NCBI GenBank assembly: GCA_047617785.1
Contig: JBLGBK010000002.1
Location: 1 to 64,000 of the forward strand
Direction of reading: 5' to 3'
DNA from: Colwellia polaris
Lineage (GTDB): Archaea; Nanohalarchaeota; Nanosalinia; Nanosalinales; Nanosalinaceae
DNA: 64,000 nt
Part shown: positions 1-9,728 of the stretch, piece after piece
Layout of the letters: every line of letters starts with the position of its first letter
Numbering within the stretch: position 1 is the first letter of the stretch
Position numbers and translations under genes: made by a program
Notes under the pieces: generated by a model
The model's input: only the letters and a program-made list of their open reading frames with translations
The model's database searches: none
What the model was told of the DNA's origin: nothing

Positions 1-1
1 A

Positions 2-3000
2 TTAGTACCTACCACTAACTCCTTCAGAACAATTTCCTCAAATAGAATCGAAATAGTAACAACAAGCTACTCAACAACCACCTCCCAAATAAGCAACCTC
101 CTCAGAAACGAAATCCTACAAATAACCTCAAACCAACAAACAACAAGAAACACAAGAATCAATAGGCTTACCGAAGCTAGCCTGGAAATAATAACTGCCG
201 AAACAGGAGGATTCACAGGTTCAAGACTGATATCAGAGAACATACAGAGCCCTGAAAGCATAACCTCGTTCAGCAGCTTAATCAGAACACAGGAAACCTC
301 AAGCGTCTTCCTTGGAATCGCATCAAGATCAATCAGCGGAGACCGAATAATTTCAGAAATATTGCCTCTAGACATGCAAGCTAGCAGAGCAAGTAATTCA
401 GCAAGAGAGACTAACCTCGAGACAGAATTAAGCCAAAGCCTATCGCGTACAACGCTAAATCTAAGAGATAACATAGAGAGAATAATACTGGAGAGCGAGA
501 CCACCCGAGAAGCAGGCGTCGCAAGGATAATACAACAGCAAATAGTACCAGAAGACCAAGAAACCATAACCTCAACACTGGCTAGAATCACCAAAGAAAC
601 ATTTTCCCCCGGCATAACAACAGAAAGGTCAACAACACTAGATAGAATAAACACAATAACAACAAGCTACTCAACAACCACCTCCCAAATAAGCAACCTC
701 CTCAGAAACGAAATCCTACAAATAACCTCAAACCAACAAACAACAAGAAACACAAGAATTAGCAGAGTTATATTTGATAGAGTTACATCAGATACAACAG
801 AAATTAGAAACATTCTAATTCAGCGAGTAGATCAGGTTGGCGTTGAAAGTACAGTCCTTAATAGTCAAGAAGTAGTGAACATAAGAACAGTAACTGAAGC
901 TCTAGTCGGAGAGGAAGCCGTCAACACAGGATCAAATCTAGGTCGCCTATTTACATCAGAAATTAATACAGCTATAACCGGAAGCCGAACAGTCCTAGAT
1001 CAGAGAAATGTTCAAAACCAGATAACAGCTACGTCAAACACACTAACTGCTTTGGACGTATATAGAACCTTAAGCGAGTCATACACCTCAATAGATCGAA
1101 ACTTTTACAGAACATCAGTAGGCCGGACCATAGAACAACAATTAGAGTTCAATGAAAATATAGATATACAATCCTATGTTTCAAGATTAAACACTGATAC
1201 CTTTTCAGGATCAATCGCATCAAGCACGCTTCTAAGCCTCAATCGCGACGAATCCTTAGGACTCAGCTTAGAAGCTGACACCCTAAGCTCAAACATGCTA
1301 TCAAGGATTAAAGCAGAAAACCTGATGGTTCAAGGCGTCATTAGTACGGAAAGCAATCTCGACAGAGCGGTTACAGAAATTTTATCTGGAACAGACAACC
1401 TAATTACAGAAAGCTGGAACAAAAGATTCCAAAGCTTGAATCTAGGAGCAAATACCGCGACTAATAGAAATTCTGCTCTTCAAAGAATTGCTCCTCAGGG
1501 AATTACTGGCAGCTTCATATCTTCGCGAGCAGTTACCGTAGATCGCCTGCTAAATAACGATTTAAGCGTTGAAATGCCTGGTTACAGGAACTTATTACAA
1601 GATAGAACAGTTGATTCTGTTTTGAGCATCTCAGACACAAACACTGAAGCGCTTCAATACGGAAGAGTGATCAGAGATGCCATCATTCAAAACGATCAGA
1701 ACTTTGGCTCCTCATTCCTAGGCCGAACACTGGTGCAGACACTAAATCTAGGAGAAAATACAACTTCCGGTTCTGCCCTCAACAGAATAACCACAGAAAG
1801 TGTCGGAACAAGCACATCTATCTTTTCCTTTAGTAATATTTTCAGAACTGAAGAAACACCTATTTCGTCAAGAAACAGTATTATAACTAGTTCAGATCTA
1901 GTAAGATCCTTCGGCCAGAATATTTACTCTGCCTCTAAAGCCACGCAATCTGTAGCCTTCCCACGGATAGTAGAAGATCAAATAAGCTACTCTGCTGAGA
2001 TACTCTCAGACAACTTCATTAAAACAGTAGTAGAACTAGGAATAGAAGCAGGAACTTCAGATTCAAGACAATCATCAAGCTACAGACTGGTATCAGACCT
2101 AACAGGCATAAACGAGGAAATTTTCACGGCTTCAAATCTTAAAAGAGATCTTACACCTGAAATAGTCTCAGATATAACTTTTAACACTCAGATCTTCCAG
2201 ACTCGAGACATATTGACTGGTTTAAGCTTTAATGAGCAGTCTATTTCAACACCTCGGATAATTAGAAGCTTTGAGGAAACCTGGGAGATCAGTCGCTCCA
2301 TAAACCTCGAATCAGCTCTATCAAGAACTATAGGCGAAACATTAGAAGTTAACGAGGAAGAAATCGCATTCAGTAATCTAGCTCGCCTTACAACAGAACA
2401 AATCAACTCAGAAATAGTATCCCAGCAAACTATCGCGATAAGCAGAGATGTAACTACCTACCTAGAAAATACCTTCTCCACAGACGTAGTAAGCGATATC
2501 TCAAGAAATAGAGATATAAGCATTCAAGCTACAAGCAGGATCTTCTCTGAATCACTAGTCAACAGAAACCTTGTTACAGATGTTGATACGACATTTAACC
2601 TAGCCCGACAAGCTCTAAGGCCAAGAACGGTAGAAGATATAATCAGAACAACCAATGCCCAGCAAAGAACGATAGTCAATATTAGAGAAGTAACCCAAAT
2701 ACTGCAAGCAAACTCCAATATAGACCGATTAGAAAGAGTGAACAGATTGCTTACACAGGAAATAGAAAACAGTATACTATCACAGCAATCAACCAATCTA
2801 AACAGGTTATTAAGCCAAGACATAGGTGCTGAAAACCAGTTTAGCAGAAACCTAGTTACCGGAAGATTTTTGGCATCAAGTCTTCAAGCAACACCGGTTG
2901 AAGAGAGGAGTTTAGCTCTTGCCCGGTTCATGGAAAGCAATATAGAAACTGAAGCTATTACAGATCAGATTGTATCCGCAGAAAGAACAATTATGACCGG

Positions 3001-4693
3001 ATTAGATCTAGCCAGTTCAGAAGATAGCCTGTCAATATACCCTAGATCGCTAGAAGAAATTTTGAGGCCAAAAACCAGCACAGAGACGCAGTCAGCTTTA
3101 AGAAGGGCTTTATCTCAAGGATTAATCACAGAAGAGCAAAGCCTTACACAAGAGCTGCTTAAAAGAGTTACTAACGAGGAAATAGAGACTGAATCAAATA
3201 TGATTCAAGATCTATTGGCTCCAAGAGCTATTAATTCCAACATTGGATACGGAACCGGGCTTAGCTCAGGAATGACTCTCCAAAGACTAGTAATACAGAA
3301 TACAGGTTTAGTACCAGAACAATCAAGATCTTACAGCGGTGCCAGATACATTAGAACAGGAATAAGTATGGGCATAAGCGAGAGCAGCCGTTGGGGTTAT
3401 GAAATATTTGAAGCAGTAGTAAATACAGGAATAGAATTTAACCAAGACAATCAGAGAAGTATCTCCGTTCTCAGAGGAGTGACAGAGGAACTTGGCCTCG
3501 AATGGTTACTTGGCATCGCCACCCCAGGAACAGACGACGAAGAAAGCTCTGATGACGGGTCCAGCGGATCAGACGGAGACGGAGGATTCGGTGGCGGAAT
3601 AATAGATCCAGTAACAGGAAGCCCCGAGATATCTTTCACAGACGAAAGGTTAACATTCAAACTTTCACCTGGAGAATCCGCCTCCTCAGAGATAGAGCTT
3701 AGAAACACCGGAGATGCTGAAGCTGCAACCAACATAGAAATAGAGCGAGCTAATTCGCCTACAATAGATGCAATAAACTTACAGAAATATGAATACAATA
3801 TAGAGCCCGAGGGAACCATCCAACCAATAATAGACATAACAGTGCCCGAGTTCCTTGCCGACGAGAACCTTTCTGGCAGAGTTCTGGAGAGGAATATAAT
3901 AGCAACTTCAGGCGAAACAAGCGATGTCCTACCTGTTAACATCTTAGTTGAAGGAGAGGAAGAGGAGTTACTCGATGTTAGGATGAATATTCTAGATAAT
4001 ACAGTTACAGAGGGCGAAAACATAGATTACAACTTTGAAATTTTCAACCTAGGCCAAAGCGGAAGAGTAGATATACGACTCTACACTACTGTAACCAACA
4101 GTACCGGAAGCGTTATTCATGAAGAAAAGGAGGAAATTGCCGTCCAGACTTCAACATCAGTAGCAAGAAAACTAGATATTGATCTTGCTCCTGGACAGTA
4201 CAAGCTTGAAACAGAAGCTCGATATGCAGATAAGGACGCCTCGTCTTTCTCAACAATTACTGTAGAAGAGGCAGAAGAAGATCATAGCCTGCGGAATATT
4301 GCGGTAGCTCTTGGAATAGTGGTCCTTATGGTAGGATCAGCTATTATAGCCATCATAGGTTACCGTAGGAAAAGACGAACAGATTACGATAAGTTAATAC
4401 AGAGAAACGTTGATGAAATCAAGGAATACACAAAAGGTCATGAGATCAATTTCCGGAAGCTGCGTAAGGAAGAAGAAAAGCACAAAGACAGAACAGAACT
4501 AGAAGAGTGGGCTGCTAAGAGAGCACCATCTATGCAAACAGAGGAAGAAGATGAAGATAAATCCAGCGATAGTTCAAACTCTCACTCTCAAAATGAGAAA
4601 GAGAAAGACGTTCCAGATAATGTATGTGATGTCTGTGGCGAAGAATTTGAGAATGCCACAGGAGTGAGACTTCACAAACAGGCGATGCACTGA
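2..4693 (+). CDS. Large membrane-anchored surface protein (5' truncated by the window): 20-aa Arg-periodic repeat stalk, acidic/Gly linker, two Ig/CARDB-like domains, TM helix, cytoplasmic tail ending in a C2H2 zinc finger
   Basis: The frame is open from nt 2 (LVPTTNSFRTISSNRIEIV...), so the true start lies upstream of the window. TM IAVALGIVVLMVGSAIIAIIGY is followed by RRKRR; the C-terminus is CDVCGEEFENATGVRLHKQAMH. Confidence 0.85.
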   Translation, partial: LVPTTNSFRTISSNRIEIVTTSYSTTTSQISNLLRNEILQITSNQQTTRNTRINRLTEASLEIITAETGGFTGSRLISENIQSPESITSFSSLIRTQETSSVFLGIASRSISGDRIISEILPLDMQASRASNSARETNLETELSQSLSRTTLNLRDNIERIILESETTREAGVARIIQQQIVPEDQETITSTLARITKETFSPGITTERSTTLDRINTITTSYSTTTSQISNLLRNEILQITSNQQTTRNTRISRVIFDRVTSDTTEIRNILIQRVDQVGVESTVLNSQEVVNIRTVTEALVGEEAVNTGSNLGRLFTSEINTAITGSRTVLDQRNVQNQITATSNTLTALDVYRTLSESYTSIDRNFYRTSVGRTIEQQLEFNENIDIQSYVSRLNTDTFSGSIASSTLLSLNRDESLGLSLEADTLSSNMLSRIKAENLMVQGVISTESNLDRAVTEILSGTDNLITESWNKRFQSLNLGANTATNRNSALQRIAPQGITGSFISSRAVTVDRLLNNDLSVEMPGYRNLLQDRTVDSVLSISDTNTEALQYGRVIRDAIIQNDQNFGSSFLGRTLVQTLNLGENTTSGSALNRITTESVGTSTSIFSFSNIFRTEETPISSRNSIITSSDLVRSFGQNIYSASKATQSVAFPRIVEDQISYSAEILSDNFIKTVVELGIEAGTSDSRQSSSYRLVSDLTGINEEIFTASNLKRDLTPEIVSDITFNTQIFQTRDILTGLSFNEQSISTPRIIRSFEETWEISRSINLESALSRTIGETLEVNEEEIAFSNLARLTTEQINSEIVSQQTIAISRDVTTYLENTFSTDVVSDISRNRDISIQATSRIFSESLVNRNLVTDVDTTFNLARQALRPRTVEDIIRTTNAQQRTIVNIREVTQILQANSNIDRLERVNRLLTQEIENSILSQQSTNLNRLLSQDIGAENQFSRNLVTGRFLASSLQATPVEERSLALARFMESNIETEAITDQIVSAERTIMTGLDLASSEDSLSIYPRSLEEILRPKTSTETQSALRRALSQGLITEEQSLTQELLKRVTNEEIETESNMIQDLLAPRAINSNIGYGTGLSSGMTLQRLVIQNTGLVPEQSRSYSGARYIRTGISMGISESSRWGYEIFEAVVNTGIEFNQDNQRSISVLRGVTEELGLEWLLGIATPGTDDEESSDDGSSGSDGDGGFGGGIIDPVTGSPEISFTDERLTFKLSPGESASSEIELRNTGDAEAATNIEIERANSPTIDAINLQKYEYNIEPEGTIQPIIDITVPEFLADENLSGRVLERNIIATSGETSDVLPVNILVEGEEEELLDVRMNILDNTVTEGENIDYNFEIFNLGQSGRVDIRLYTTVTNSTGSVIHEEKEEIAVQTSTSVARKLDIDLAPGQYKLETEARYADKDASSFSTITVEEAEEDHSLRNIAVALGIVVLMVGSAIIAIIGYRRKRRTDYDKLIQRNVDEIKEYTKGHEINFRKLRKEEEKHKDRTELEEWAAKRAPSMQTEEEDEDKSSDSSNSHSQNEKEKDVPDNVCDVCGEEFENATGVRLHKQAMH
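57..759 (+). repeat. Exact 103-bp direct repeat (57-159 and 657-759), 600 bp apart, inside the surface-protein gene
   Basis: Identical sequence taacaacaagctac...cacaagaat in both copies; the offset equals 10 x 20-aa units. Confidence 0.95.
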
Positions 4694-4779: not shown

Positions 4780-5193
4780 GTGGAAAACAGGCTCGACGCA
4801 ATAGATTATGCAGTAGCATTAGCAATACTCCTTATATCAACTCTAGCAGGATTAATACACCATTTCACCCCTGTAAAGATACCAATTATATACATGGAAA
4901 TTACAGGCTTACTGATATTTCTAACTGGAGTAGGCATAATGTACCTGATAGCCAGAAAAGCCGAAAACAGGGTAGGCCGACACATAAAAGTAGTATGTAT
5001 AGGCGCTCTATTTTTCGTTATGGCCTGGAGCCACAGAATTGCAAAAGGACAATTAGAACTAGAAAACTACGGACTAACAGACAACGTTACTTCTTCATTC
5101 TTTGTCACTCTCGCTGTAGGAGGAATGATTCTTATGACCTACGGATTCTACATGGTGAAAGAAGAAGTACAGCTAGACAACAAAAACACGTAG
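4780..5193 (+). CDS. Small integral membrane protein (about 4 TM), unknown function
   Basis: 137 aa with four hydrophobic segments; GTG start after an AT-rich promoter-like stretch. Confidence 0.75.
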   Translation: MENRLDAIDYAVALAILLISTLAGLIHHFTPVKIPIIYMEITGLLIFLTGVGIMYLIARKAENRVGRHIKVVCIGALFFVMAWSHRIAKGQLELENYGLTDNVTSSFFVTLAVGGMILMTYGFYMVKEEVQLDNKNT

Positions 5194-5271: not shown

Positions 5272-5345
5272 TGGACCCTCAGGGATTTGAACCCTGGGCC
5301 TTCCGCTTGCAAAGCGGACGTTCTGCCAGACTGAACTAAGGGCCC
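5272..5345 (-). tRNA. tRNA-Ala(TGC)
   Basis: Reverse complement folds as a cloverleaf: acceptor GGGCCCT/AGGGTCC, anticodon arm TCCGC-ttTGCaa-GCGGA, T arm GGTTCAAATCC; no encoded CCA. Confidence 0.96.
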
Positions 5346-5683: not shown

Positions 5684-8853
<3,170 letters not shown>

Positions 8854-9653: not shown

Positions 9654-9728
9654 GGGCCCGTAGCTCAGCCTGGACAGAGCAACCGGCTTCTAACCGGTAG
9701 GTCGAGGGTTCAAATCCCCCCGGGTCCG
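9654..9728 (+). tRNA. tRNA-Arg(TCT)
   Basis: Acceptor GGGCCCG/CGGGTCC, anticodon arm ACCGG-ctTCTaa-CCGGT, T arm GGTTCAAATCC. Confidence 0.96.

Follow-up and report, generated by a model that had tools for sequence, protein, structure and literature searches.

How symbionts of the DPANN archaea, with their tiny genomes, attach to their hosts is an open question, for which the candidates so far are giant proteins built of immunoglobulin-like (Ig-like) domains (the SPEARE proteins) and pili. The question is raised again by a gene at the very start of the stretch analyzed here (the window), the first 64 kb of contig C2 (JBLGBK010000002.1) of a 787 kb, 22-contig nanohaloarchaeal genome (GCA_047617785.1, here G000), in which an incomplete reading frame begins with dozens of 20-residue repeats that share a nearly invariant arginine. 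The repeats belong to one giant membrane protein. In the explanation favored here, to which we assign a probability of roughly 55%, they form a solenoid spacer stalk that displays an N-terminal head towards the host. Such a protein would add a third, modular solution to the problem of attachment, a rod of tunable length whose extracellular heads and intracellular tails are both exchangeable.

The plus-strand frame at positions 2..4693 is open at its 5′ end, closes with the stop codon at 4691–4693, and encodes 1563 amino acids (aa). When aa 1–1120 are written in rows of 20 residues, column 15 is arginine in 55 of 56 rows; the single exception, at nucleotides (nt) 1982–2041, has lysine in column 14 and threonine in column 15. 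In 2000 composition-preserving shuffles, the column richest in arginine averaged 8.8 and never exceeded 17, and the arginine–arginine autocorrelation reaches 62, 60, and 58 at lags of 20, 40, and 60 against 0–20 at other lags. Column 1, six positions after the arginine, is hydrophobic in 50 of the 56 rows (I22, L20, V4, F2, Y1, W1), and columns 13 and 17 are mainly aliphatic. A second, weaker arginine at column 9 (20 of 56 units) had been missed in the preliminary description of this sequence, column 11 is serine in 22 of the 56 rows, and the other columns hold less than 0.7 bit each. Cysteine is absent (0/1120), and lysine (8/1120) and proline (17/1120) are scarce. Aspartate and glutamate make up 11.9% of the repeats versus 17.9% of the 475 open reading frames (ORFs) of at least 200 aa in the same genome, and the stretch is acidic nonetheless, with an isoelectric point of 4.8 versus a median of 4.7. 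The register, the hydrophobic position, the divergence of the remaining columns, the lack of cysteine, the scarcity of lysine, and the reduced acidity had all been noted in the preliminary description and hold up; its count of at least 56 units proved an understatement. Since Tandem Repeats Finder detected no 60-nt array, the period survives only in the amino-acid sequence, and the units are old and diverged.

The remainder of the gene lies on a second contig of the genome, C15. The minus strand of C15 ends in the exact 127 nt with which the window begins, and a six-frame scan of all contigs of the genome finds the arginine period only at the starts of C2 and of C15 (minus strand). Contigs from three public sequencing runs carry C15-type sequence into window nt 1–86. 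Additionally, P0003, a full-length orthologue of 2687 aa from the related genome G068 (one of the nanohaloarchaeal genomes used for comparison, with G012, G039, G042, and G055), is collinear with both halves at 30–33% identity. The overlap, the run contigs, and the collinear protein together establish one gene across C15 and C2, and the window therefore encodes the C-terminal 1563 aa of a single ~2,780-aa type-I membrane protein. C15 contributes 37 further units, 27 in the register of the window and 10 farther upstream that are shifted by one residue owing to a single 21-residue unit, and the 56 units of the window are thus the C-terminal 56 of ~93. The register is indel-free across the window, and 82 of 83 consecutive units (C15 plus window) carry arginine at column 15.

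Blocks of the array that lie 600 nt apart are 39% identical in protein, which marks the duplication of a 600-nt, 10-unit cassette. The youngest part of this duplication is a 103-nt identical stretch, found by self-comparison at an offset of 600:

Positions 57..159, plus strand: first copy of the 103-nt identical stretch
Positions 657..759, plus strand: second copy of the 103-nt identical stretch

A 103-nt Logan contig fits both copies at ~2x the flanking depth, and the identical stretch is the likely cause of the contig break. No joint that would betray a 600-nt length variant appeared in contigs from four public runs. These contigs differ from the window by single bases at 128, 605, 610, 728, 773, 1592, and 1771, and a public 1297-aa protein is 99.5% identical to window aa 267–1563; close strain variants therefore exist.

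From the N to the C terminus, the protein consists of a signal peptide, a glycine-rich head, Ig-like domains, the ~93 repeats, a linker, two Ig-like domains, a transmembrane (TM) helix, and a tail. C15 supplies the start codon, the hydrophobic signal sequence, a ~200-aa glycine-rich region, and the first Ig-like domains, so that the N-terminal head predicted from the window alone does exist, upstream of the repeats. The parts within the window are as follows:

Positions 2..3361, plus strand: 56 tandem 20-residue units (aa 1–1120), defined by the column profile, the shuffles, and profile matches along the whole stretch
Positions 3362..3517, plus strand: two degenerate last units, a possible C-terminal cap (aa 1121–1172), in which the arginine register is lost
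Positions 3524..3598, plus strand: acidic, Asp/Ser/Gly-rich flexible linker (aa 1175–1199), seen in the sequence
Positions 3599..4282, plus strand: two membrane-proximal Ig-like beta-sandwich domains, from weak Pfam matches below the curated cut-offs
Positions 4295..4363, plus strand: single TM helix, followed by RRKRR, seen in the sequence
Positions 4364..4693, plus strand: Lys/Glu-rich cytoplasmic tail, ending in C-x2-C-x12-H-x4-H (nt 4625–4690) and the stop codon

The head has no Pfam match at E ≤ 0.1 (hmmscan) and no counterpart among PDB sequences at E ≤ 10 (phmmer). In a feature search of the Atlas, its nearest clusters (0.89, 181–183 shared features) carry Gly_rich_2 (PF21722) or ALK_LTK_GRD (PF12810) and are mostly viral, both of which serve as a lead only. 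Poly-Gly or Gly-rich linkers stand at the equivalent place in the homologues from G012, G039, and G042. The Ig-like pair is matched by the Pfam families HYDIN_VesB_CFA65-like_Ig (E 0.0014) and DUF11 (E 0.096), both sub-cut-off, and the homologous region in G042 by CARDB (E 3.4e-4); the same region is 41% identical to the G012 protein. By the positive-inside rule, the basic residues after the TM helix would place the C terminus in the cytoplasm. The C2H2-type pattern at aa 1542–1563 of the window frame has no Pfam zinc-finger match at E ≤ 0.1, and two copies in the G012 orthologue pass Pfam zf-C2H2_6 (E 5e-11).

The stalk is nearly devoid of sites for N-glycosylation. The window repeats (2–3361, 1120 aa) contain one N-x-S/T sequon versus 20.9 ± 3.6 expected from within-column shuffling (1000 shuffles, minimum 9), and the C15 repeats (127–1686 of L001, a stretch of C15; 520 aa) contain none versus 12.1 ± 2.6 expected. 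The N-terminal 480 aa, with the head and the Ig-like domains, hold 17. The orthologues P0002 and P0003 likewise combine a sequon-empty stalk with a sequon-dense N-terminal region. Selection evidently keeps the stalk free of N-glycans, to judge from the sequon counts, and it may do so either because a glycan on the unfolded chain would block the stacking of coils or because packing or binding requires bare faces. A sequon-poor stalk beside a sequon-laden head makes a clean case of selection shaping archaeal surface glycosylation.

The repeat is not unique to one genome but belongs to a large and so far unnamed family. From 1.84 billion cluster representatives, a family profile (A3; 100 positions, built from 40 repeat blocks) retrieved 1,153 proteins at E ≤ 1e-3, 356 at E ≤ 1e-10, and 25 at E ≤ 1e-30, and the arginine autocorrelation peaks at a lag of 20 residues in 148 of the best 150. 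As first surmised from the window, no named family covers the repeat. Among the curated libraries scanned (a 2025 copy of Pfam-A, NCBIfam 20.0, and PHROGs), no Pfam or NCBIfam family matches the repeats of the window, C15, G012, or G039 proteins, no Pfam family lies over the repeat in 10 and then 51 other members, and PHROGs has no match for the window, C15, or G039 proteins; two other members match phrog_23524, of unknown function. The repeat profile found nothing among PDB sequences at E ≤ 1. A lectin-type Laminin_G_3 domain occurs in 15 of 51 short members, and fn3, Gp77, and DUF2341 in one each; the Pfam families found in members are read as flanking domains or chance matches, with coordinates checked in two proteins only. 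Named members among 20 that were looked up come from Nanohaloarchaea, Pacearchaeota, and Bathyarchaeia and are all annotated as 'hypothetical', and of 37 further relatives only two bear labels, which are automatic domain or enzyme ones. No description of the repeat was found in the literature on nanohaloarchaeal or DPANN surface and giant proteins, archaeal 20-residue solenoids, or arginine ladders (supplementary files were outside this coverage). It thus marks more than 1,000 'hypothetical' sequence clusters outside Pfam, NCBIfam, and the PDB, and a single structure would annotate the family.

A word-index search with the window repeats returned only P0001, 99.5% identical, at near lengths and nothing among longer proteins, a consequence of limited sensitivity, as the profile search later showed. 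An Atlas search with 400 aa of repeats gave only unannotated viral clusters (0.90–0.91) at low recognition and is unusable as evidence. The one hit in the phage database, a hypothetical protein of Methanosarcina virus MetMV, lacks the arginine period and does not show bona fide phage membership. A viral scan with P0093 as query found one IMG/VR contig, L014, that shares only the N-terminal domain. The protein in question (8052–10277 of L014) has 44% identity to P0093 in that domain and bears a different, arginine-free repeat of ~20 residues (...TQAAETLSA...); head-protease and tape-measure genes stand elsewhere on the contig.

The 2387 gap-free units from the best 150 of the 1,153 family proteins define the anatomy of the repeat. 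Their consensus is L1 T2 L3 S4 D5 S6 V7 T8 R9 x L11 T12 L13 x R15 T16 L17 S18 D/E19 T20, with arginine at column 15 in 2196 units (and lysine in 116), arginine at column 9 in 1584, and aspartate at column 5 in 1328, the last being poorly kept in the window protein (Asp in 5 and Glu in 8 of 56 units). The aliphatic columns 1, 3, 13, and 17 are conserved. Serine, threonine, and alanine (S/T/A) account for a fraction of 0.45–0.69 in eight even columns versus 0.01–0.29 in the odd ones, and the odd columns are aliphatic except for the charged 5, 9, 15, and 19. Covariation within proteins is led by the column pairs 9–13, 17–19, 11–13, and 9–11, followed by a run of i,i+2 pairs. Where column 9 has neither arginine nor lysine, a basic residue is found at column 11 (22% vs 9%) or column 13 (8% vs 2%), a compensation that would fall on the same face of a strand. 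Glycine, proline, asparagine, and aspartate concentrate at columns 2–6 and 12–14, and single-residue insertions in the G012 and C15 repeats occur near columns 1–2. The alternation, the i,i+2 covariation, the compensation, and the placement of turn-formers together suggest that each unit has two beta strands, with turns near columns 5 and 15. Between adjacent units, no pair exceeded z 3.7 after within-protein shuffling; raw mutual information between adjacent units, in which same-column pairs dominate, was discarded as confounded by the consensus specific to each protein.

A stretch with 13% serine, 12% threonine (26% together), and 7% asparagine might also be a mostly unstructured tether in which the periodic arginines serve processing or charge spacing, and the low confidence of the AlphaFold2 (AF2) models described below would suit such a chain. 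An unstructured tether has no evident use for an exact unit length, which is held over 83 units here and in 148 of the 150 best family proteins, nor for conserved aliphatic columns, so little proline, or covariation and positional compensation within units, and we regard it as highly unlikely. The alternating columns raise another reading, in which the flat Ser/Thr faces are themselves functional and organize water or bind a lattice such as a host S-layer or glycan, with the repeat acting as the adhesin. Even columns that are 45–69% S/T/A in register over dozens of coils and faces free of glycans would both suit a binding surface, and the ice-nucleation proteins are described as having 65 tandem 16-residue coils with outward threonine arrays (PMC9418140). 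The window columns beyond Arg 15 and the aliphatic column 1 are diverged, unlike the near-identical motifs of the ice nucleators, and the number of units varies from 6 to ~130 between relatives; faces that act as the adhesin are accordingly very improbable.

Returning to the solenoid stalk, each unit would form one coil of a flattened, two-stranded beta-solenoid with strands at columns 17–3 and 7–13. The aliphatic residues at odd positions would fill the space between the sheets, the small S/T/A residues at even positions would line the faces, and the turns would center on column 15, with its invariant arginine, and on column 5, which is aspartate in the wider family. Identical unit length would stack the arginines ~4.8 Å apart along one edge of the rod, and 93 coils at a rise of 4.8 Å would give a rod of ~45 nm. 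AF2 was run on 300 aa with 16 alignment rows and then on 240 aa with 86 rows. The best model of the second run has a mean predicted local distance difference test score (pLDDT) of 48 and a predicted template modeling score of 0.38, with strands of 6–7 residues every 10 residues across residues ~119–200 at pLDDT 55–69. These strands map to columns 17/19–3/4 and 7–13 and leave Arg 15 in the turn between them. A Foldseek-independent search of 48,161 PDB chains placed the 50 best at Z 8.6–11.6, and these are presumably for the most part parallel beta-helices and solenoids (SufB/D-type proteins, pectate and alginate lyases, phage tailspikes and fibers, NosD).

Several results weigh against a solenoid of 93 stacked coils. 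The assembly broke at the cassette repeat, which leaves the unit count uncertain by multiples of 10. Hydrophobicity power is low at period 2 and highest at periods 5 and 3.3; the low value arises because four odd positions are charged, and an alpha-helical reading of the peaks at 3.3–5 was set aside because the S/T/A residues alternate with period 2, the covariation runs i,i+2, and AF2 predicts strands. Columns 9 and 19 do not covary, though regular strands would point Arg 9 and Asp/Glu 19 coreward, the strand pairs expected across a solenoid core are not outstanding in the covariation, and the same data would fit a beta-hairpin meander as well. The first AF2 run (300 aa, 16 self-derived rows) reached a pLDDT of 31 and placed different strands of 13 residues, while four of the five models of the second run scored below pLDDT 48. 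Foldseek against the PDB gave no match at E ≤ 0.001, and by the search tool's own account Z of 9–12 may reflect only an arrangement common for repeats. Further, AF2 is described as building beta-solenoids from random perfect 20-residue repeats in 36 of 50 cases (PMC11795689), a test set from which the present units, far from perfect repeats, differ. The stacked-coil model and its neighbors thus agree with a solenoid without proving it, since such Z values are common for repeats and AF2 is biased in this direction.

On balance, a beta-solenoid is the most likely fold, at odds somewhat better than even. The preliminary description had proposed a rigid beta-solenoid or oligomeric beta-helix stalk with an internal ladder of arginines, possibly stabilized by anions in brine. 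A folded, beta-rich, length-locked unit is borne out, and the rigid solenoid leans, on the structural side, on a model of mean pLDDT 48. The buried ladder is not supported by that same low-confidence model, in which Arg 15 sits in a turn and not in a strand. A role of the arginine in brine is unlikely, given its retention in 2196 of 2387 family units and the presence of Pacearchaeota and Bathyarchaeia among the members, neither of which is known as a brine lineage.

The low confidence of monomer predictions, even with 86 rows, also bears on whether the repeat folds only as an oligomer, for example as a trimeric beta-helix or beta-spiral, as in phage tail fibers and spikes, or as a bundle in which the Arg-15 and Asp-5 edges of neighboring chains hold together, to give a multi-chain fiber. 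Low monomer confidence is often seen with obligate oligomers. Phage tail fibers and tailspikes stand high among the structural neighbors, the two turns are oppositely charged across the wider family, and sequons are avoided in every column, which suggests that a glycan could be accommodated on none of the faces. Additionally, the tail of the G012 protein has a long coiled-coil-like segment at its end, and one of the G039 homologues carries a fused ATPase of the HerA type, a type that works as a ring. The poor retention of Asp 5 in the window protein speaks against paired edges, and the unit has no conserved Gly/Pro turn, which the triple beta-spirals of adenovirus and reovirus possess. One TM helix per chain and a hydrophobic core of odd positions describe a self-sufficient monomer. 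A run with three copies of 240 aa each scored 0.00 with an uncertain fold and is uninformative either way. An obligate oligomer is unlikely, but it is the main rival to the single-chain solenoid.

The single-chain solenoid stalk would be a rigid spacer without glycans, holding the head out past the envelope of the symbiont towards the host haloarchaeon, and the length of the rod would be tuned by gain or loss of 10-unit (600-nt) cassettes. Nanohaloarchaea are described as living attached to the host (PMC10266531). In the sample of 69 other genomes of the phylum, seven have the repeat at E ≤ 1e-6; it is missing at this threshold from the other two genomes of the genus, which are 74% and 89% complete. 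The homologues reuse the repeat in different settings:

G012, one contig, 3573 aa: ~130 units (114 steps of 20 residues, 6 of 21); outside, a different N-terminal domain and the same linker, Ig-like pair, and TM helix; inside, two Pfam-passing C2H2 fingers and a coiled-coil-like end
G039, first protein, L004 (G039:C121) 3–2456, minus strand: 6 units, in one open frame
G039, second protein: 20 units in exact register (L007 711–1910), then poly-Gly, after which the frame runs off the contig end
G042: ~20 units, with another head
G055: degenerate repeats, with an FG-GAP head

A spacer is favored by the export signal, the single anchor at the C terminus, the flexible linker, the diversity of heads among relatives, and the range of 6 to ~130 units, as well as by the patchy distribution among close relatives and growth by 10-unit cassettes. 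The architecture, read from sequence, would fit a length-adjustable spacer with a variable binding head.

The frame of the six-unit protein of G039 encodes, in order, Ig-like domains, the 6 units, poly-Gly, PGF-pre-PGF, a Cys-rich segment, a TM helix, and a DUF87/HerA-type P-loop ATPase (E 2.3e-11) within which the contig ends; the best NCBIfam rows for the ATPase, the DNA-translocating ATPase CedD and TraD, lie far below cut-offs. Since a single frame here joins the repeat to a TM helix and a HerA/DUF87/FtsK-like P-loop domain, the rod could belong to a conduit or track that connects symbiont and host, either a tube of chains or an arginine ridge that guides a polyanion such as DNA to a translocase. 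One invariant arginine every 4.8 Å, as the solenoid model has it, would suit a guiding ridge, and nanohaloarchaeal giant proteins with VirB4/TraG-like domains have been proposed as secretion channels (a 'straw'; Reva et al. 2023, PMC10266531). The window, G012, and P0003 proteins have no ATPase, and the window gene has no ATPase gene next to it, its downstream neighbors being genes for a 137-aa membrane protein, a tRNA, and 23S rRNA. The majority of the family consists of short proteins with lectin-type heads, and nothing indicates a lumen. The G039 fusion ties the repeat module to the SPEARE-like class and keeps the conduit alive at low probability; as an account of the window protein it is very unlikely. 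A bolder and improbable combination would make the repeat the mark of an unrecognized and widespread class of rods and have the two oppositely charged edges zip glycan-free solenoid chains into hollow or sheet-like fibers, a bridge of 45–65 nm between symbiont and host that, with a HerA/VirB4-type ATPase as in G039, would form the exterior of a transfer conduit. If true, charged-edge fibers would give the 'straw' idea for DPANN giants a concrete structural element.

The genes around the giant gene provide some further context. Two small genes lie directly upstream of it, at 3943–4566 and 4599–4934 of L001 (both minus strand), and their counterparts in G012 (L013, 3743–4360 and 3410–3718, both plus strand) are 69% and 60% identical, far above the conservation of the giant gene itself (~30–40% between genomes). 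The two may belong with the giant gene in one unit. One product has 207 aa with an N-terminal hydrophobic segment ending in ...SFGAGAAFDNG, the other is a 111-aa membrane protein, and no Pfam or NCBIfam family matches them. Just before the pair in G012 stands a weak archaeal signal-peptidase-I-like gene, and the set might resemble the SipW/TasA arrangement. Farther upstream on C15 (L001 5275–7321), sulfatase and family-2 glycosyltransferase genes are divergently oriented, and in G012 the orthologue is followed by a second very large gene (L013 15412–19500, more than 1363 aa) with a Laminin_G_3 domain. Downstream in the window, 4780–5193 directly after the giant gene encodes a predicted multi-pass membrane protein of 137 aa without a family match. 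The archaeal 23S rRNA gene (5798–8752) and tRNA genes (5272–5345 and 9654–9728) follow and account for a rise in G+C at 6–8 kb and for spurious ORFs at 5749–6120.

Several known systems share part of this design. The curli subunit CsgA and FapC have units of ~20 residues, predicted to form a strand-turn-strand, two-sheet solenoid with polar ladders. Unit length and, if the predicted solenoid holds, two strands per coil and ladders of identical residues would be common to them and the window repeat; they differ in having few units per subunit, in forming intermolecular polymers, and in ladders of Gln, Asn, and Ser rather than Arg, and no Pfam match links them to the repeat. Pentapeptide-repeat proteins also spend 20 residues on each beta-helix coil. 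The consensus of the window family shows neither their five-residue sub-repeat, A(D/N)LXX, nor their four equal faces, there is again no Pfam match, and the low-confidence AF2 model has two 7-residue strands per unit. Phage tailspikes and fibers and the pectate-lyase-like beta-helices are the best structural neighbors of that low-confidence model (Z 9–11) and share the logic of a head on a shaft, but they are three-sided with irregular coil length and no sequence period, and no sequence relation was found.

The repeats of the ice-nucleation proteins InaZ and InaK are similar in having dozens of short, fixed-length units, a predicted solenoid of one coil per unit, Ser/Thr faces, and exposure at the cell surface. 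They differ in a period of 16 rather than 20, in their consensus, in near-identical coils as opposed to ~20% identity here, in the lack of an invariant arginine in each coil, and in their place on the bacterial outer membrane, and they have no sequence match to the window repeat. The C-terminal coils of ice-nucleation proteins do carry arginine. Among systems of the same phylum, the SPEARE proteins (e.g., SVXNc_0300) are described as having an ectodomain of ~75 Ig-like domains of 100 aa and beta-propellers and a cytoplasmic VirB4/TraG-like ATPase (PMC10266531). The ectodomain of the window protein consists mainly of the 20-residue repeat and its tail has a C2H2-type pattern, with no P-loop domain found. 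Both types of protein combine a signal peptide, a giant ectodomain, a single TM helix, and a cytoplasmic C-terminal module with a proposed interaction with the host, and the likeness extends to G039, where a homologue of the repeat has a HerA/VirB4-like P-loop domain after its TM helix.

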